A program made the position numbers and the translations under genes. Positions 22-8,843 of a stretch of DNA of 41,227 nucleotides are shown one piece after another (the stretch's first letter is position 1; each line of letters begins with the position of its first letter). Below the pieces are notes generated by a model, which saw only the letters and a program-made list of their open reading frames with translations, was not told where the DNA came from and ran no database searches. The DNA is from an uncultured bacterium (GTDB lineage Bacteria; Fidelibacterota; Marinisomatia; Marinisomatales; UBA2128). The stretch is taken from the NCBI GenBank assembly GCA_964534955.1, contig CAZHRR010000003.1, positions 1 through 41,227 of the forward strand, given 5' to 3'.

Positions 22-606
22 ATGGTATATCAAAAGTTGAAAAATATTGAACCTCTGTTATTCTCGTATCGGGAAGTAGCAAAGGTCTTGAATATCCAAT
101 TATCATCAGCGAAGCTACTTTGTCACCGTTACCAGAAACAGAAGTATTTCGTGAGATTAAAAAGGGATGTCTATATTCTTGCTGAACGATGGAATTATTT
201 ATCCGCACTGGAATTATTTCAGATCGCAAATCGACTGCAAGTACCTTCTTACATTTCTTTAACAACTGCTCTTTCCTATTATGGTTATTCTACACAGATT
301 CAGCAGGGATTTTTTGAATCTGTTGCAATAAAACGCACTTGGAAGAGAAACATTGAATCCACCATTTTCAGTTATACACGCATCTCTGATAAATATTACT
401 TCGGGTTTCGCAGGATGAACGGCATTTTTATAGCTGAACCGGAAAAGGCGTTGACTGATGCATTATATCTGACATCTATTGGAAGGTATGGTCTTGACTT
501 TTCTGCACTGGAAATGTCAAAGATTGATTTGAAAATAGTGGATACATTATTAAACAAATATCCGGAAAAAACAAAATCAACATGGGATAATTATGCAAGA
601 CCTTAA
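22..606 (+). CDS. Type IV toxin-antitoxin AbiEi-family antitoxin / transcriptional regulator
   Basis: N-terminal wHTH-like region; PSYISLTTALSYYG and AEPEKALTD motifs typical of AbiEi-like antitoxins; overlaps the downstream nucleotidyltransferase toxin gene. Confidence 0.8.
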   Translation: MVYQKLKNIEPLLFSYREVAKVLNIQLSSAKLLCHRYQKQKYFVRLKRDVYILAERWNYLSALELFQIANRLQVPSYISLTTALSYYGYSTQIQQGFFESVAIKRTWKRNIESTIFSYTRISDKYYFGFRRMNGIFIAEPEKALTDALYLTSIGRYGLDFSALEMSKIDLKIVDTLLNKYPEKTKSTWDNYARP

Positions 607-1258
607 GCTTCATGAACAATTTGAAATTGAAGTCCTCGATTACTTAAACAGTCACCGAATACTGGATCATCTTATATTTGGCGGGGGGACTTCACTACGC
701 TTGTGTCATGAATTAAACCGCTATTCCATTGATCTTGATTTCTATCTAAAGAACCCGGCTCAAATGGACACAGATCAACTGTTCATCCGCTTTCAATCTG
801 TCATAGAACATGAATATATACTGACGGATACACAGGATAAATACAGAACGCTCTTATTTGAATTCAGGAGTGACCGTTATCCAAGCCGGTTAAAAATTGA
901 GATCAATAAGAGCGCTGTTTTTACCGATTTTCAACAAACGATCGCTTTTTCTCCATACTCAACACGGCAGGTTCTGTTAAATGTGTTATCCCTGGATCAA
1001 ATGATGGAAAATAAAGTAGCTGCCTTTTTAGACAGAAAGGAAGCCAGGGATGCGCATGATATAGAATTCCTTGTCCGGCGCGGGATACAGCTTCCTAAGG
1101 ATAAAAACGTGTTGATTCAAATGGGGAAGAAATTACACTCACTTACACTAAATGATATCCGCGTTAAACTGGGATCGTTATTAACTGACGAAATCAGGCA
1201 GTATTACGTTACCCATGGCTTTGAGTTTTTAATTCAGCATATTCAGCAAAATAAATAA
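593..1258 (+). CDS. AbiEii/AbiGii-family nucleotidyltransferase toxin
   Basis: FGGGTSL...RYSIDLDF motif and KVAAFLDR..ARDAHDI motif; 14-bp overlap with the antitoxin gene. Confidence 0.88.
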   Translation: MQDLKLHEQFEIEVLDYLNSHRILDHLIFGGGTSLRLCHELNRYSIDLDFYLKNPAQMDTDQLFIRFQSVIEHEYILTDTQDKYRTLLFEFRSDRYPSRLKIEINKSAVFTDFQQTIAFSPYSTRQVLLNVLSLDQMMENKVAAFLDRKEARDAHDIEFLVRRGIQLPKDKNVLIQMGKKLHSLTLNDIRVKLGSLLTDEIRQYYVTHGFEFLIQHIQQNK

Positions 1259-1300
1259 TCTATAAATGGGTTTCTTCCTGTCACTACCAGAAGATAGGTG

Positions 1301-1370
1301 GGCATCACCTGCCTCGCACCTTGATCGACCGAAAGAGAATGAGGGGTGTATGTTAAGAGGGGGTGATGTC
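1301..1370 (+). other. Long imperfect hairpin that sequesters an RBS and ATG of a 27-codon sORF (1366..1449)
   Basis: GGCATCACCT (1301-1310) pairs with GGGTGATGTC (1361-1370); GCACCTT (1316-1322) pairs with GGGGTGT (1343-1349), using G-U pairs. Confidence 0.35.
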
Positions 1371-1587
1371 TGAGAACAGTTACCGTAGAAATGCCCAAAT
1401 TACGAGGCGACTTCAAAATCCAAAGTTAACTGAACAAATAATGACCTGAAAACTTCCCCAAGACATTTTTAAATTAGTCTGGAAAGATTTACTTCTCTCA
1501 TACAGTGAAATAGATAATAGATTTGCCAGGAAGACCAAGTTATATTTACAAAGCGAATAAAACGGTCTTTAAAGAGGGGGAATAATT

Positions 1588-2229
1588 ATGATGAAGCAAT
1601 TCGTGTTTTGTGTTTTGGGGATAATACCGTTAATGCTTTATGCACAAATTGACTACAACAGTCAGATCCAGTCTATCTTTAATGCGAATTGTATCAATTG
1701 CCATGGATCATCCGGTGGACTCAGTCTAACCTCATACGACAATTTGATGACAGGAGGGAATCACGGTGAGGTGGTAACACCCTTCGATGCGGATAACAGC
1801 ATTCTTGTGCAGAAACTACAGCCCAATCCTCCCTTTGGAGACCGTATGCCCAGAAACAATCAATCTTATTTTGATGATCATCCTGATGAATTGCAGTTGA
1901 TTATCGATTGGATAAATGAAGGAGCATCTGAGTTTATCTCAGTAACCGCCAACGTAGAAATACCAGGCTCATTCGCCATTTTAGAGTCCTATCCCAATCC
2001 GTTCAACGCCGCCGTGACCATAACATTTTCAGTCCACCAGATGATGGATCTGGAACTTGAGGTTGTCGATATTCTGGGACGAAGAGTAACTATTCTGGCA
2101 CGAGGTGTGACTGACCCAGGTCGTCATCGGGTTATATGGCTGGCGGAGGACATCTCCAGTGGTCTCTACTTTGCCCGACTTAATGCAGATGGATGGTCTT
2201 CCACCGCTAAGTTGCTTTTGCTAAAATGA
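1588..2229 (+). CDS. Secreted monoheme c-type cytochrome (planctomycete cytochrome c-like) with T9SS/Por-type C-terminal sorting domain
   Basis: Signal peptide ending LYA-Q; CINCH heme motif; RMP and WINEGA domain signature; C-terminal YPNPFN...DILGR.V...SSGLYF...KLLLLK; RBS AGAGGGGG. Confidence 0.8.
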   Translation: MMKQFVFCVLGIIPLMLYAQIDYNSQIQSIFNANCINCHGSSGGLSLTSYDNLMTGGNHGEVVTPFDADNSILVQKLQPNPPFGDRMPRNNQSYFDDHPDELQLIIDWINEGASEFISVTANVEIPGSFAILESYPNPFNAAVTITFSVHQMMDLELEVVDILGRRVTILARGVTDPGRHRVIWLAEDISSGLYFARLNADGWSSTAKLLLLK

Positions 2230-2630
2230 TGCGTCTTGGAGGTTGGCTGGAAGGCACTATCATCCTTGGAATCCTGACAGGTTGTACGGACATAGGCAGC
2301 GGACCTCCTCCGGATGACCTTACTTTTTCAGATGATGTCCAGGTCATCTTCGATCACAATTGTACTACTAGCTGTCATGAAGGAGTGAATGCAACAGGAG
2401 GCCTCAGTCTTACCTCTGGAAAAAGCTACGCTAATCTCGTGAACGTTCCCTCTTCTTATGCCGGATTGCTTCGTGTGGAGCCGGGTAATGCCGATAGCTC
2501 GTTGCTTTATTTGAAGGTGATTGGTTATCCTCAAACTGGCGTCAGGATGCCTTTGGACGGTACGACACTCTCGAGTATGCAGATTTCAGCAATCAGGACG
2601 TGGATCGATGAAGGTGCTAAGAACGACTAA
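2226..2630 (+). CDS. Lipoprotein c-type cytochrome with atypical CX3CH motif; paralog of the upstream cytochrome domain
   Basis: Lipobox ILTG-C; CTTSCH; shares GGLSLTS..Y.NL, P.(D/N)AD.S.L..K, RMP and WI.EGA with 1588..2229. Confidence 0.72.
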   Translation: MMRLGGWLEGTIILGILTGCTDIGSGPPPDDLTFSDDVQVIFDHNCTTSCHEGVNATGGLSLTSGKSYANLVNVPSSYAGLLRVEPGNADSSLLYLKVIGYPQTGVRMPLDGTTLSSMQISAIRTWIDEGAKND

Positions 2631-3714
2631 CGTCTTCTATTTCCTGCTGATTATCTTTTCGGTGCTGCCGGAAACCGTCCATTCTGTACCCCGGCTGGCG
2701 GTACAGAATGGATTTTCTTGTGTGACCTGTCATGTGAATCCAGCTGGAGGTGGTCTGAGGAATGAATACGGTTCATCGATAGTATCATTGGATGAACTTC
2801 CATTAAAGCCCTCGTCGAAGCATCCGGTATTCACAGGAGCTCTCTCCAATCATCTTCGGATTGGTGCTGACATTCGACTGCAGACCTATGTTCACAGTAA
2901 AGAGGAAACCCAGTGGGAGAGGGTCTCTTTCCCCATGCAGTTGGAGTTCTACGGCCACTGGCTGATTACCAGGAATCTTCAGGCTTATGCCGCCGTGGAT
3001 GCTCTTTGGGATAACACTGAGGGGTGGGTCAATCTGCAGCCAGCCAACCTCGAAGGATATATTAGAGCAGGCAGAATGACGCCTCATTTTGGGTTGGCTT
3101 TAGACGACCATACTACCTTCGTCAGAGGAGGGAACATCAAGCTGAAGAACGGTCTGAATGCGGAAGGGATGATCTTTTCGTCCTTGCGTTCATCTCCTGT
3201 CACAGTGGAAGTGGGTATAAACGCGGGAGATTTCTTCATCACTGGAAGTGTTTCGGACGGCTATATTTCTGGAAAAACAGGAAGTCATACCTTCGGAGGG
3301 CGTGTGGAATATTCCGGGGCGCTTCTAAAGAATCAGGCGCTGGCAGGCTGTTCTGCAATACTGGAAGATGACCTTATCCTGGCAGGAATGTTTGGAGGTA
3401 TTTCAAGAGGTCCATTCACTTGGATGGGAGAGGTGGACATAGCGGACAATTGGGTAGGAGACGGTACTTCTCTGGCGTCGTTCAATGAGTTAAGTTACAG
3501 CCTGGTTCAAGGCATTACTCTTACAGCCAGATACGATTTTTTCGATGAGGATATCACCTACCTTCAAAATGCACTTGGACGAGTGGCTGCGGGCATTGAG
3601 TTCTTTCCTTTGCCATATGTGGAAATCCGAAGTCAGGTTCGTGTAACTAAGGTGTCAGGTGAAGATGAAAGTCAAAGTCCTGAGTTGTTGGTTCAGCTTC
3701 ATCTCTGGTTTTGA
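2608..3714 (+). CDS. Cytochrome c-porin fusion (Cyc2-like architecture): N-terminal monoheme plus outer-membrane beta-barrel
   Basis: Start reassigned to ATG 2608 (MKVLRTT, signal peptide). VPRLAVQNGFSCVTCH follows the cleavage site; alternating beta-strand pattern; C-terminal VQLHLWF beta-signal. Confidence 0.7.
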   Translation: MKVLRTTNVFYFLLIIFSVLPETVHSVPRLAVQNGFSCVTCHVNPAGGGLRNEYGSSIVSLDELPLKPSSKHPVFTGALSNHLRIGADIRLQTYVHSKEETQWERVSFPMQLEFYGHWLITRNLQAYAAVDALWDNTEGWVNLQPANLEGYIRAGRMTPHFGLALDDHTTFVRGGNIKLKNGLNAEGMIFSSLRSSPVTVEVGINAGDFFITGSVSDGYISGKTGSHTFGGRVEYSGALLKNQALAGCSAILEDDLILAGMFGGISRGPFTWMGEVDIADNWVGDGTSLASFNELSYSLVQGITLTARYDFFDEDITYLQNALGRVAAGIEFFPLPYVEIRSQVRVTKVSGEDESQSPELLVQLHLWF

Positions 3715-3727
3715 AAAGGGGGAATAA

Positions 3728-4090
3728 ATGAGGTTAACAGTCATAGGTATTATTACGGTGTTTCTGTTTTCAGGGATAGTTCAGGCACAGGATCTGAAAA
3801 ACGTGCAGGTACTCCCGTTTAATAGCACCCGCGAGATTGTACCATTCATGAAAAAAATGGCGATGAACCTGGATGTAAAGTGCAATTACTGCCATAATAT
3901 GAAGGACAAGTCACTGGATGAGATTAAGCACAAGCGCATCGCCCGGGAGATGATGCGAATGGTGAAGCGCATCAACAAGGAATATATGACTCCGTTGAAG
4001 ATTGATGCTATAACATGCTGGACTTGCCATCGCGGAACTACCGCTCCGCAGCGCAGTGCCGAAGACACGCGGAAACCACACAACCATTAA
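3728..4090 (+). CDS. Periplasmic diheme c-type cytochrome (reaction-centre cytochrome PufC-like small family)
   Basis: Signal peptide ending VQA-Q; LKNVQVL; CNYCH and CWTCH; K.IAREMMRM..RIN motif; RBS AGGGGG. Confidence 0.78.
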   Translation: MRLTVIGIITVFLFSGIVQAQDLKNVQVLPFNSTREIVPFMKKMAMNLDVKCNYCHNMKDKSLDEIKHKRIAREMMRMVKRINKEYMTPLKIDAITCWTCHRGTTAPQRSAEDTRKPHNH

Positions 4091-4107
4091 TTTTATGGGA
4101 ATACTTT

Positions 4108-5481
4108 ATGGATACGAAGCCGGTTATTACTTACGCTGAAGAACACAGTCAGAAATTTATTGAAGATCTGGTAGAATTTGTAGAGATCCCAAGCATTTCC
4201 AGCAGCTCAGAGCATAAAGGAGAGGTTCACCGATGTGCTGAGTTTCTGCGGGACCAGATGCTCCAGGCCGGACTCCTTCGAGCAGAGCTGATTGAGACAA
4301 CAGGACACCCTATAGTTTTTGGCGAATGGAACGGAGCTGAGGGGAAGCCAATTATCCTGATATATGGACATTACGATGTACAGCCTGTTGATCCATTGGA
4401 GCTGTGGGAGACACCGCCGTTCGAGCCGGATGTGCGGAACGGGCGGATGTACGGCCGCGGGACTGTGGACGATAAAGGACAGATTTACATTCACTTGAAA
4501 GCTATCGAATCGTGGCTGGAAGTAAATGGTGGCTTACCACTGAACATCAAGTTTATCGCTGAAGGTGAAGAGGAAATTGGAAGTAAAAATCTGTGTGAAT
4601 TTCTTAGGAATAATCGCGAACTGTTGAAAGCTGATGTGTCGGTTATTTCTGATACGCCAATGTTCCAGAAGAGAATGCCCTCCATATGCTACGGTCTCCG
4701 GGGACTGGCGTACTTTCAACTGAATCTCCGCGGATCGAAGCAGGACCTTCATTCAGGAACATTTGGCGGCGCTGTAAAGAATCCTATTCATGCCTTAGCC
4801 GAGATGATCACTAAGCTCAAAGACGAAGCCGGGCGCATTACTATCCCCGGATTCTATGATGATGTGCTCCCTGTCAGCGATGTAGAGCATGCAGACCTCT
4901 CAGCCCTGCCTTTTGATGAGGAGATGTACCGTATGGAAGTGGGTGCACCCGCACTGTACGGCGAGGAAGGATACTCAGTCTTGGAAAACCTCTGGGCTCG
5001 ACCGACGCTGGATGTGTGCGGCATCTGGGGTGGATTTCAGGGAGAGGGAGCCAAAACGGTTATTCCGGCGGAAGCACATGCCAAGGTGAGTATGCGGCTT
5101 GTGCCTAACCAGACACCGGAGAGGGTTGGTGATCTTTTTGAAGAATACATAAGGGTAATTGCACCTCTGGAAATGGAAGTTACGGTGGAACAGTTACACG
5201 GGGGTGACGGTTTCATTGCCGATATGTCTCATCCTGCCTTCGACGCCGCAAGGAAGGCTCTACAGAAGGGATTTGGTAGAGAGGCTGTGCTCATTCGTGA
5301 GGGCGGCTCTATTCCGTTCGTCCAGACTTTAGTCGATACCCTGAAAGTGCCATGCCTCCTGATCGGCTTTGGACTGCCGGATGAAAACGCTCACGCACCT
5401 AACGAATGGATCGATCTGGAGAATTATCAGTTGGGGATATTAAGTTCAATCTATCTTTACGAAGAACTTTCGCATGATTAA
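4108..5481 (+). CDS. M20 family metallo-dipeptidase
   Basis: YGHYDVQP, GRGTVDDKGQ, EGEEEIGS, DLHSG, GGSIP and NAHAPNE motifs; start reassigned to ATG 4108. Confidence 0.9.
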   Translation: MDTKPVITYAEEHSQKFIEDLVEFVEIPSISSSSEHKGEVHRCAEFLRDQMLQAGLLRAELIETTGHPIVFGEWNGAEGKPIILIYGHYDVQPVDPLELWETPPFEPDVRNGRMYGRGTVDDKGQIYIHLKAIESWLEVNGGLPLNIKFIAEGEEEIGSKNLCEFLRNNRELLKADVSVISDTPMFQKRMPSICYGLRGLAYFQLNLRGSKQDLHSGTFGGAVKNPIHALAEMITKLKDEAGRITIPGFYDDVLPVSDVEHADLSALPFDEEMYRMEVGAPALYGEEGYSVLENLWARPTLDVCGIWGGFQGEGAKTVIPAEAHAKVSMRLVPNQTPERVGDLFEEYIRVIAPLEMEVTVEQLHGGDGFIADMSHPAFDAARKALQKGFGREAVLIREGGSIPFVQTLVDTLKVPCLLIGFGLPDENAHAPNEWIDLENYQLGILSSIYLYEELSHD

Positions 5482-6769
5482 GATGAAGTACATTTTTCTG
5501 ACAACCTGGCTGTGGATTACCTGTCTTTCCGTGACTGTTCAAGCGAAGCAGCAAGATCTTACTCTGATTTCCGATATTTCAGTGGAAGGGCATAGTGTAA
5601 CTGAGGAGTATATCATCCTCCGGGAGATTCAACATCCTGTGAATGCTCCTTATGACTCGGTCTTGGCTGCAGAAGACAGGAACAGGATCGACAACCTCGG
5701 GATTTTCTCCGAAGTGAAGATTCGGCTGCTGCCCAATGGTGATGGAACTCAAACACTGATATATAGAGTAGTGGAATCCTGGCGGCTTTTCCCAATACCT
5801 ATTATCATGTATGAGGAGGATGTCGGGTGGTCTTTCGGCGGGATGGTGCTCTTGAAAAATTTTAGGGGCAGGAACGAAAACCTGTCGGCGTTTGCCTCCT
5901 TTGGACGTCGGAATGTAGGCGGTATCGGGTTTGATGATCCTTGGGTTTTGGGCGATCATGTTTCATTTCGCGGACATTTTTTCTATAAGATGACTGAGCA
6001 CTTGTTTCTCCCTCATGATTATCGTGAATTGGACTTGGAGACAACTGTTGGCCGCTACTTTGGTTATCACTGGAAAGTGTGGGGTACAGTGAGCATTGAG
6101 CAGAGACGGATTGATTTTTTTTCTGAAGAAAAGCAGGATGTTGAACATCGCTATTTCCAGACGAAGTTTCAGCTGATTTACGACACACGTGATCTGTACA
6201 TAGATCCTTCAGAAGGAATCTACATTGACACCCAGCTTCGTCCAGAACTGGGGCTAAACGAAGATTCACCAAATTTCACTGAATTGGACATCACTGCCAG
6301 TGCTTTCAAATCCATTATTCCAGGGAAAAGGAAGTGGGTTGCAGGTGTGTCATTTACTTTGCACCACTATTTTGGTGAGAGCATTCCCTACAAAGTTTTT
6401 TCTGTGGGAGGGGTAGAGTCTATTCGTGGATGGGAAGTGCTTGACTCAACTCTTTATGCGAAAGAACCGTTCCGTTCTGGATTGAATTTTTATTATGCTT
6501 CGGCTGAACTGCGTCAGACTGTGATTCCAAAACGGCTGACGCACTTCGGAACCGAATTCGGGTTGATTCTCGTTGAGTTCTTTGATTTGGGTGCCGCCGC
6601 CATTAACTTTTCTGATATGATGAGCAAGAAACCCATAATGGGTACTGGCATCGGGATACGTTTCTATATTCCAGGTAATATCTTGTTTAGAGTAGATTAT
6701 GGGGTTAGTCTTTATGAACGTGCGTGGGGTGTTCCCAAATGGCACATATCTGTAGGGCACAAGTTTTAG
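5474..6769 (+). CDS. Omp85 (BamA/TamA) family outer-membrane protein with one POTRA domain
   Basis: Signal peptide; POTRA-like ISVEGHSVTEEYIILRE...LGIFS; NFRGRNE; GGVESIRGW (VRGF-like); GIGIRF; terminal F. Confidence 0.82.
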   Translation: MIKMKYIFLTTWLWITCLSVTVQAKQQDLTLISDISVEGHSVTEEYIILREIQHPVNAPYDSVLAAEDRNRIDNLGIFSEVKIRLLPNGDGTQTLIYRVVESWRLFPIPIIMYEEDVGWSFGGMVLLKNFRGRNENLSAFASFGRRNVGGIGFDDPWVLGDHVSFRGHFFYKMTEHLFLPHDYRELDLETTVGRYFGYHWKVWGTVSIEQRRIDFFSEEKQDVEHRYFQTKFQLIYDTRDLYIDPSEGIYIDTQLRPELGLNEDSPNFTELDITASAFKSIIPGKRKWVAGVSFTLHHYFGESIPYKVFSVGGVESIRGWEVLDSTLYAKEPFRSGLNFYYASAELRQTVIPKRLTHFGTEFGLILVEFFDLGAAAINFSDMMSKKPIMGTGIGIRFYIPGNILFRVDYGVSLYERAWGVPKWHISVGHKF

Positions 6770-6795
6770 ACCTACGTTCGTAAGGGAGGTAGACA

Positions 6796-8445
6796 ATGTC
6801 TGCACATGAACAGTTTAATGATCTGGTCAATCGCTACTACGACGACTTCTTCAGTTTTAATCCTACAGCCGGCCGCTCTGCCGGCTTCCATCGCTATCTT
6901 GGGAAGGTACCGGACTTTTCTTATGAAAACATCATGGGTTTTCTCAAGCGGATGCGATTCTATCTGATTGAAGCTGAGCGGCTGGAGAAGGAAGACCTTG
7001 GTATCCAGGAGACTGTAGATTTGAAGCAGCTGTTGATGGCGATCAGGTATGAACGTTTTAGACTGCTGCAGTTAAGGTGGTGGGCAGAAGATCCTATGAC
7101 TTATGAAGCCCATCTCGACATCAGCACTTATCTAAAGCGGAACTACGATTCTATGACGGTCAGAGCCCAGCATGCTGCTCAACATCTGAGAGAGATTCCG
7201 CGATTTCTCGACCAGCAGAAGTTTAACCTTCAATCTCCTCTTCCCAGAATCAATCTCCAGACTGCTATAGAGACATATAAAGGATACAGGGATTTCTATC
7301 AAAAGGAAGTTTCTCACTACTTTTCCGAGATGGAGGATGAGAGCGTATATCTGGATTTGGAGCAGTCCGCTATCCGGGCTACTCGATCCCTTGACACATT
7401 CATCATGTATATGGAGGAAACTCTCCTCCCTGAGGCGACAGATAACTTCGCTATCGGGCGCTTTAACTTCATTGATATGCTCCGTTATGGTGAAATGGTA
7501 GAGATTAAGCTTGATGAACTTTTGAAAGTGGGTGAAGAGGATCTGGCCCGGAACAGTGCTGAATTTGAAGACTTAGCACAGCAATTTATACCCGGGAAGA
7601 GTGCAGCGGATGTGATGAAGGAAGTTGCGAAAGATCATCCCGATGCGGAATCTCTGGTTTCCGATACTGAAGAGATGCTGGAGACCATCCGAACATTCAT
7701 CATCGAAAAGGATCTCGTGACCATCCCCTCTGAAGTTCGCATACGGGTGGAAGAAACTCCCACATTTTATCGGTGGGCTTTCGCCATGTGTGATACTCCT
7801 GGTCCCTATGAGAAGAAGGCAACAGAATCATTTTATTATGTAACCAATGTACTGGATGAGTGGCCGGACAAAAAGAAGGAGGAGTGGCTCACTAAATTCG
7901 ACTATGCAACGCTGGATAATGTCTCCGTCCACGAAGCTTACCCTGGACACTTTGTTCATCATCTACACACGTTATCAGCGCCTTCTAAAGTGTCCAAATT
8001 GACTGGAGCTTACTCCTACTGGGAAGGGTGGGCTCACTACGGGGAAGAAATGATGATGGAAGAAGGCTGGCATGAGGGCGACGTACGCTATCGTCTGGCT
8101 CAGTTCTCCGAGGCACTTCTCCGGGACTGTCGTTTTATCTGTGCCATTAAAATGCATACCGGTCAGATGACCGTTGATGAGGCCACGGAGTTCCTTATGG
8201 ATAATGCCTTCATGACAGAGACGCCCGCCCGTAAGGAGGCGGAACGAGGTACTTTCGATCCGGGATATTTGAATTATACACTTGGGAAGCTGATGATCCT
8301 TAAACTCAGGGAAGACTGGAAGATTCAGGAAGGAGATTCATTCTCCCTGAAGCGGTTCCACGATACTTTCCTCTCTTTCGGCGCCCCGCCTATTCCCCTC
8401 GTTCGGAAACTTATGCTTTCAGCCGACGATGGTAAGATTCTCTAA
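6796..8445 (+). CDS. DUF885 family protein (metallopeptidase-like)
   Basis: HEAYPGHFVH, EGWAHYGE, YTLGKLMI and FHDTFLSFGAPP motifs. Confidence 0.85.
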   Translation: MSAHEQFNDLVNRYYDDFFSFNPTAGRSAGFHRYLGKVPDFSYENIMGFLKRMRFYLIEAERLEKEDLGIQETVDLKQLLMAIRYERFRLLQLRWWAEDPMTYEAHLDISTYLKRNYDSMTVRAQHAAQHLREIPRFLDQQKFNLQSPLPRINLQTAIETYKGYRDFYQKEVSHYFSEMEDESVYLDLEQSAIRATRSLDTFIMYMEETLLPEATDNFAIGRFNFIDMLRYGEMVEIKLDELLKVGEEDLARNSAEFEDLAQQFIPGKSAADVMKEVAKDHPDAESLVSDTEEMLETIRTFIIEKDLVTIPSEVRIRVEETPTFYRWAFAMCDTPGPYEKKATESFYYVTNVLDEWPDKKKEEWLTKFDYATLDNVSVHEAYPGHFVHHLHTLSAPSKVSKLTGAYSYWEGWAHYGEEMMMEEGWHEGDVRYRLAQFSEALLRDCRFICAIKMHTGQMTVDEATEFLMDNAFMTETPARKEAERGTFDPGYLNYTLGKLMILKLREDWKIQEGDSFSLKRFHDTFLSFGAPPIPLVRKLMLSADDGKIL

Positions 8446-8843
8446 TGCAGGAACGCCGTAGGGTTTATTCCGGCGCTCCCTGGGAATCTCAGGTCGGCTA
8501 CTGCCGTGCAATTCGTGCCGGTGATCTTATCTATGTTACAGGTACAGCACCCGTGGTGGAGGATGGTTCGACTTTTTCTCCGGGTAATGCCTATGCTCAA
8601 ACCCGACGCTGTCTGGACATTATCGCCGAGACACTGAAGGAATTGGAGGCAGATCTTTCAGATGTCGTCCGGACTCGGATGTTCGTAACGGATATTGACT
8701 GTTGGGAAGATTACGGCCGTGCTCATCGCGAGTTCTTTGGAGAGAATCCGCCTGCTACTACCATGGTTGAAGTAAAGTCTCTCATTGATCCTGAGATGCT
8801 GATAGAAATTGAAGCTGATGCTGTAGTCCAAAGTACCGGCTAA
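8445..8843 (+). CDS. RidA/YjgF/UK114 family protein
   Basis: WESQVGYCRA, DVVRTRMFVTDI and LIEIEADA motifs. Confidence 0.9.
   Translation: MQERRRVYSGAPWESQVGYCRAIRAGDLIYVTGTAPVVEDGSTFSPGNAYAQTRRCLDIIAETLKELEADLSDVVRTRMFVTDIDCWEDYGRAHREFFGENPPATTMVEVKSLIDPEMLIEIEADAVVQSTG

Follow-up and report, generated by a model that had tools for sequence, protein, structure and literature searches.

The gene at 1588-2229 of the window (the whole stretch of Marinisomatota DNA analysed, 41,227 nucleotides) encodes a c-type cytochrome that carries a C-terminal sorting domain (CTD) of the T9SS (type IX secretion system). The make-up of the protein, a signal peptide, a PSCyt1-type monoheme domain and a type A T9SS sorting domain, is confirmed, and the tagged cytochrome is not a one-off but belongs to a widespread family that combines this module and tag. 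Our preferred reading, with a probability of about 0.5, is that it is a one-electron carrier exported to the cell surface by a motor-less SprA-PorV translocon and acting here as an optional outer member of a porin relay. Export of the holo-protein is likely; if it is exported, participation in this organism's porin relay is favoured with rather less assurance.

A monoheme cytochrome with a sorting domain

The gene and its parts are laid out as follows.

1588-2229, + strand: CTD-tagged monoheme cytochrome gene, 213 aa, assigned from the open reading frame (ORF), domain matches and homologues
1588-1644, + strand: predicted Sec/SPase I signal peptide, residues 1-19, with the mature protein starting at Gln20
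1645-1935, + strand: PSCyt1/FoxE-like heme c domain, with CINCH at 1690-1704 and the predicted distal ligand Met87 at 1846-1848
1963-2226, + strand: C-terminal sorting domain of T9SS type A, predicted to have seven strands, with Lys208 at 2209-2211

A purine-rich ribosome-binding site is located at approximately 1574-1580, 5′ of the ORF. Scanning 1250-4300 for promoters and terminators gave results at chance level, with none on the + strand.

The original prediction, a c-type cytochrome fused to a T9SS-like CTD with a CINCH motif followed by a YPNPFN...GLYF...KLLLLK tail, holds in every element. CINCH occupies residues 35-39 (nt 1690-1704), YPNPFN residues 135-140 (nt 1990-2007), GLYF residues 192-195 (nt 2161-2172) and KLLLLK residues 208-213. 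The PSCyt1 profile PF07635 matches at 29.3 bits (cut-off 22), TIGR04183, the profile that had been proposed as a check, at 30.9 bits (cut-off 23) and PF18962 at 32.3 bits (cut-off 27), these two at residues 135-210, the extreme C-terminus. The signal peptide and the distal methionine are features beyond that prediction. Judged by hydropathy and alignment, residues 1-19 are the sole hydrophobic stretch and provide the predicted N-terminal Sec signal peptide of a T9SS type A cargo; the alignment also shows a conserved Q-x-D-Y at the start of the mature domain.

Of 654 candidates, 507 matched in a homologue search with the tagged cytochrome. Both domains are covered by about three dozen of the 120 homologues listed, those with a name being Marinimicrobia/Fidelibacterota. 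For the alignment 26 rows were picked from the 120, and one, P0043, a CTD-only match lacking the heme motif, was removed before counting. C35, C38, H39, M87, P88, W108 and PNPFN are invariant in the resulting 25 full-length homologues. In the genome that carries the window, five of the 90 ORFs ending in a CTD contain CxxCH, with eight motifs observed against 0.04 expected from composition. The AlphaFold model of the tagged cytochrome (mean pLDDT 80.5) consists of a helical domain, a low-confidence linker (residues 118-127) and a seven-strand sandwich, the CTD, with pLDDT 83-96.

The closest solved relative of the heme domain is FoxE, a diheme protein from Rhodobacter ferrooxidans SW2 that is a putative Fe(II) oxidase (PDB code 5MAB; Z 9.3, rmsd 2.6, 92 aligned residues, 33% identity). 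A single-sequence search with the domain missed FoxE; a profile of 21 heme modules recovered it at E 4e-12 and matched hydrazine synthase alpha at E 2e-6. In the profile alignment the MP motif containing Met87 falls on the RMP of both FoxE repeats. The hemes of FoxE are Met-ligated, according to a Rhodoferax model compared with 5MAB in the accessible part of PMC10654088; the word FoxE is absent from PMC13741234. From the invariance of Met87 and the homology with FoxE we infer a His/Met heme c with this residue as the second ligand.

A conserved CxxCH (25 of 25 homologues) in an exported protein, together with a maturation system, is what characterizes a c-type cytochrome. The genome encodes CcmA/B/C/E-like proteins and two CcmF, most scoring below the equivalog cut-offs, and many multiheme cytochromes with up to 30 motifs. 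A CxxCH that takes no heme, the fold being derived from a cytochrome but the motif serving as a disulfide or metal site, is very improbable. Such an arrangement might be suspected from several module-carrying families in which CcmF_C is absent or rare (0/15 in f17, 3/30 in f28, 0/9 in f30), and five of 50 module-carrying genomes without CcmF_C also gave no match to the heme-lyase family PF01578. The other 45 do have a PF01578 gene, which largely removes the idea of a heme-free module in CcmF-less families. In addition the histidine and methionine are invariant to the same degree as the cysteines, the module shows homology to heme domains both in FoxE and in hydrazine synthase alpha, and the tagged cytochrome's own genome has Ccm genes.

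A type A CTD is a sandwich of seven strands that has a lysine close to its end (PMC10994853, accessible part). Both features are seen in the model and alignment of the tagged cytochrome, and the lysine, Lys208, is shared by 19 of the 25 homologues. Fold matches of the tail include the CTDs of RemA, NucA (Z 8.0), mirolase, RgpB and PorU (Z 8.5), but since many unrelated Ig folds are also among them the profile match is the better evidence for a CTD. When the tail alone was compared with the PDB by sequence the best T9SS CTD gave a non-significant E of 0.87. The use of TIGR04183 as a marker of the FCB superphylum is already published (PMC5317091, accessible part).

The heme-porin cassette and the module outside it

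The tagged gene heads an operon in which it is followed by genes for a lipoprotein, a heme-porin and a diheme cytochrome.

2226-2630, + strand: paralogous heme-module lipoprotein with Cys20 lipobox, CTTSCH and Met108; ATGA overlap with the tagged gene
2608-3714, + strand: Cyc2-like fused heme-porin with signal, one N-terminal CxxCH and a barrel of 16 predicted strands; length 368 aa, counted from the ATG at 2608
3728-4090, + strand: diheme c-type cytochrome that has a signal peptide and is predicted to be periplasmic; NF033196, PF02276

The lipoprotein gene overlaps that of the heme-porin, and the diheme gene starts 13 nt after the latter. Cys20 of the lipoprotein is invariant in 15 of 15 sequences. 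The diheme cytochrome matches NF033196 at 75.8 bits (cut-off 70) as well as PF02276. No Pfam, NCBIfam or PDB sequence match was obtained for the heme-porin; the best fold match to its model (mean pLDDT 64, below 50 in the heme region) is OprP, with Z 21.3. Cyc2 comprises a signal, one N-terminal CxxCH and a 16-strand OprP-like porin, at least 365 aa in all (10.1101/228056, accessible part), and the model of the heme-porin has this architecture. Two Cyc2 motifs were sought in 59 members of the porin family, AxPxFAR[QK][TY] upstream and PxL downstream of CxxCH, and neither occurs in any of them. A relaxed P-x-F-A, placed before the heme motif in the same register as in Cyc2, is present in 56 of the 59.

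The porin family occurs in 97 of 301 genomes of the phylum, and 60 loci were fetched, picked from strong matches across families among those 97. The lipoprotein gene is upstream of the porin in 51 of the 60 and the diheme gene downstream in 49. A tagged cytochrome is located upstream on the same strand in 11 loci, representing six families and two orders, and in divergent orientation in three. It is missing from the head of 49 cassettes (40 of the 51 with at least 1.4 kb of upstream sequence), and the cassette of a same-genus genome, L053, lacks it at that position. The 11 of 60 heads, together with stand-alone fusions in genomes without the porin, rule out the tagged gene as an obligate part of the cassette. 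Going by the record labels, related porins also occur in Ignavibacteria, Poribacteria, Nitrospirota and Bacteroidota. Some of them have a heme-module partner; at the related loci seen in those records there is no tagged head.

The operon suggests a relay in which electrons could pass between the tagged cytochrome, the heme lipoprotein, the heme-porin and the periplasmic diheme. This reading is based on four heme genes that overlap or lie 13 nt apart and on the tagged head in six families. It is weakened by the 49 cassettes without that head and by the genomes with a stand-alone fusion, 20 of 20 of which lack the porin. A further point against it is that a single small heme makes poor contact with minerals compared with MtrC-type multihemes. 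As to direction, the resemblance to FoxE and Cyc2 speaks slightly for electron uptake, with Fe(II) as an example of a dissolved reductant. Six of the 60 cassettes have upstream a choice-of-anchor V protein that contains CxxCH and ends in a dockerin-like tail; this is another surface anchor and argues for display at the surface.

Several features of these loci are recorded here in their own right. The choice-of-anchor V proteins, with CxxCH or CxxxCH, are those of L075, L077, L079, L085, L092 and L066, the last also being fused to a heme module. At L115 a CTD-only ORF of 84 aa occupies the usual place of the tagged cytochrome and is possibly a broken or miscalled copy. Directly upstream of the tagged gene, at 22-1258 (+ strand) of the window, is an AbiEi/AbiEii-like type IV toxin-antitoxin pair in DNA of lower GC content; same-genus relatives have a hydrolase gene there, so the pair looks like an insertion. 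Genes for an M20 dipeptidase, a POTRA plus Omp85 barrel protein, DUF885 and a RidA-like protein follow the cassette on the same strand (4015-8843).

How is the module used elsewhere? The whole family comprises 47,780 clusters, and in the phylum the module is found in 191 of 301 genomes against 97 for the porin. Stand-alone short CTD fusions account for six of 19 hand-picked Marinisomatota loci and come from five genomes. The module is also part of cohesin, lamin-tail and dockerin proteins of 350-1400 aa; a paralogue in the tagged cytochrome's own genome (G000:C33:3220-6876, L104; 1218 aa) combines it with three cohesin matches and a CTD. With the dockerin-tailed heme proteins of relatives, L104 hints at cohesin-dockerin scaffolds that display hemes. 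Cohesin, dockerin and lamin-tail proteins are typical of cell surfaces, and the occurrence of the same module on them is a further reason for the surface-export reading.

A second lineage was sampled through 251 genomes of a Bacteroidota-containing group. The same fusion, 220 residues long and 30-40% identical to the query, occurs in 15 of the best 30 loci. These fusions share 47-63% identity with a Balneolaceae-labelled protein and stand alone beside recN, mostly with an Fe-S oxidoreductase gene as well. The porin family was found in 0 of 20 genomes with a stand-alone fusion, both positive controls (2/2) being detected. The Atlas lists four clusters with the module-CTD architecture, commonest in Balneolota or Fidelibacterota. 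Our own profile found a CTD in one among the top 148 new module representatives, a list ordered by repeat number and hence no measure of fusion frequency. In a tree of 70 heme modules, built without rows containing X and without modules that lack both CTD and lipobox, the tagged, lipoprotein and scaffold forms are interleaved and the tagged cytochrome is not sister to its own lipoprotein neighbour; the tree is a quick version with many open forks and supports no order of events.

These distributions bear on an alternative in which the cytochrome is exported with its heme but works outside respiratory electron transfer, as a general surface redox module carried by many secreted proteins. It might serve as a one-electron donor or sink for surface enzymes, reduce metals for uptake, quench oxidants or act in sensing, and the head of the porin operon would be one context of several. 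The stand-alone forms in both lineages agree with it, in particular the synteny between Fe-S oxidoreductase and recN in the Balneolaceae-like loci and the absence of the porin from those Balneolaceae-like genomes examined, as do the fusions to large cohesin, lamin-tail and dockerin proteins and the excess of module-bearing over porin-bearing genomes. Against this, the tagged gene is translationally coupled with three further heme genes, both here and in six families, and in the second lineage a module lipoprotein beside a YceI and DUF5777 barrel operon could mean that another conduit serves there. We consider this alternative unlikely, though the strongest of the competitors. The lipoprotein heads the YceI plus DUF5777 operon in eight of the best 30 loci of the Balneolaceae-like lineage (L227-L229, L231, L235, L237, L239 and L241).

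The tagged cytochrome's own genome contains further heme proteins. Three CTD proteins (G000:C46:13217-16042, C85:42-4238 and C111:6673-7953) share, just before the CTD, a segment with two CxxCH approximately 37-41 residues apart that is unrelated to the PSCyt1 module and is possibly a second secreted heme module. One multiheme island (G000:C40, L107) combines HmcB/HmcC-like genes with nine cytochromes that have 4-18 motifs. In another (G000:C20, L108) proteins with 17, 30 and 8 hemes are encoded ahead of a predicted barrel-like gene. These islands are stronger conventional candidates for extracellular electron transfer than the tagged cytochrome.

Translocon genes and the case for export

The search for sprA, porV and porU that had been suggested located all three in the tagged cytochrome's own genome (completeness 97.45%): SprA at 629 bits, eight PorV-family barrels over the cut-off, and PorU at 721 bits with GHG and TC motifs, presumably the catalytic pair, aligned with those of 6za2. 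CTD matches number 88, at the ends of ORFs many of which are 500-3500 aa long. SprA is over the cut-off in 293 of 301 phylum genomes, and even genomes of about 0.8 Mb retain it. All genomes in which the fusion was observed have SprA, which is present in 20 of 20 genomes of the second lineage.

The canonical T9SS also has the motor subunit GldM, which was not found here. The profile search gave none in the tagged cytochrome's own genome, 0/151 in phylum genomes and 0/20 in the Balneolaceae-like lineage, with the caveat that a very divergent homologue could be missed; as a control the profile was over the cut-off in 14 of 61 genomes of the Bacteroidota-containing sample. GldL, GldN and PorP gave no match in the own genome, nor did the positive controls for these profiles. 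No intact GldK-like gene was found by way of the FGE domain, the sole match to which is a broken piece of 46 residues. The system thus looks motor-less, and we infer export from the other components. In Flavobacterium the GldLM motor releases cargo from the translocon, and in F. johnsoniae lacking the motor the cargo stays trapped there (PMC10994853, accessible part). Export here therefore needs another release mechanism, and the reading is weakened to that extent. A lead to the energy source is offered by loci L216-L219 of three other families, where a heme-module lipoprotein gene follows that of a PorV/PorQ-family barrel and faces, by eye, an apparent exbB-exbD-tonB.

The original prediction that a holo-cytochrome reaches the cell surface is therefore upheld in part: CTD, sprA/porV/porU and Ccm genes are present and the GldLM motor was not found. 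The Bacteroidota T9SS precedent that it invoked applies to the CTD and translocon genes; the host is of Marinisomatota and no GldLM motor was found in it. Domain matches above cut-off, motifs conserved in 25 of 25 homologues, and the SprA/PorV/PorU and Ccm genes remain the basis for surface export.

Does the holo-cytochrome instead stay in the periplasm? The tail would then be a CTD-like Ig domain without export function in motor-less lineages, and the cytochrome, free or docked on a PorV-family barrel, would shuttle electrons at the porin's inner side. Apart from the motor and hub genes not found, this would agree with the generic FlgD_ig matches given by the CTD tails of homologues, the unrelated Ig domains that make up most fold matches of the tail, and the periplasmic partners with which FoxE is described (PMC10654088, accessible part); no publication was found that shows CTD-dependent export in Marinisomatota. 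It accounts poorly for the retention of SprA in even genomes of about 0.8 Mb, the catalytic motifs kept by PorU and the 88 CTD matches at the ends of often very long ORFs, and an untagged periplasmic diheme is already part of the cassette. We regard periplasmic retention as improbable, more so than a surface role outside respiration.

For the surface-exported carrier the following steps are envisaged. Sec would export the tagged cytochrome, with cleavage before Gln20 as predicted from the sequence. Ccm would attach heme c at C35/C38/H39 in the periplasm, with Met87 as second ligand. By analogy with Bacteroidota, PorV in SprA would capture the CTD and PorU would remove it, and the cytochrome of roughly 100 residues would then be attached to a surface glycolipid or released.

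Novelty and comparison with known systems

A full-text search, covering few subscription papers and no supplements, found no publication on cytochromes as T9SS cargo. The words 'cytochrome' and 'heme' are absent from a 2024 review of T9SS cargo (PMC11205867), and the accessible parts of PMC9606717, PMC8067304, 10.1101/2025.05.29.656830 and PMC5688066 contain nothing on cytochrome-CTD fusions. The domain pair is already visible in automatic annotation, and the supplementary domain tables of papers could list such fusions. New here are the monoheme FoxE-like tagged family, its link to a Cyc2-like cassette, the optional nature of that link and a testable stand-alone orthologue.

If exported, the protein would represent a route for c-type cytochromes to the outside of Gram-negative cells that our literature search did not find described, and this in a marine phylum that is widespread and to which those parts of the literature that were examined ascribe no extracellular electron transfer. 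The tagged cytochrome is small (about 21 kDa) and its heme colour would report both location and CTD cleavage, making it a natural reporter for SprA-PorV-PorU export without the GldLM motor. The match to the Balneolaceae-labelled protein places the same fusion in a lineage that, we assume, has cultured members. A wider proposal is tentative and rather doubtful: that in Marinisomatota (SAR406) and Balneolota a motor-less T9SS-type translocon displays holo-cytochromes c, and that part of SAR406 has a minimal five-heme conduit, of tagged FoxE-like cytochrome, heme lipoprotein, Cyc2-like heme-porin and periplasmic diheme, through which electrons pass to or from dissolved metals or partner cells.

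The tagged cytochrome has one heme motif where FoxE has two, so the intramolecular ligand swap of FoxE does not arise. It bears a sorting tail and has no adjoining foxY or foxZ, its neighbours being the lipoprotein, porin and diheme genes; the two heme repeats and foxEYZ context of FoxE proper are absent.

In common with the Bacteroidota type A cargo RemA, NucA, mirolase and RgpB it has a signal peptide, a passenger, a short low-confidence linker and a seven-strand C-terminal domain with YPNP, GxY and a near-terminal lysine, in a genome with SprA, PorV and PorU. The differences are that the passenger is a c-type cytochrome, that the host phylum is Marinisomatota and that the GldLM motor and GldN were not found in the genome.

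The heme-porin shares with Cyc2 the signal, the single N-terminal CxxCH and the 16-strand OprP-like barrel, and differs in having lipoprotein, diheme and sometimes CTD-tagged partners. The operon follows the logic of the MtrCAB and PioAB conduits, an outer cytochrome, a barrel and a periplasmic cytochrome, with five hemes over four proteins compared with 20 in those systems. The outer cytochrome would be exported by a T9SS-type route, not by the T2SS as a lipoprotein.
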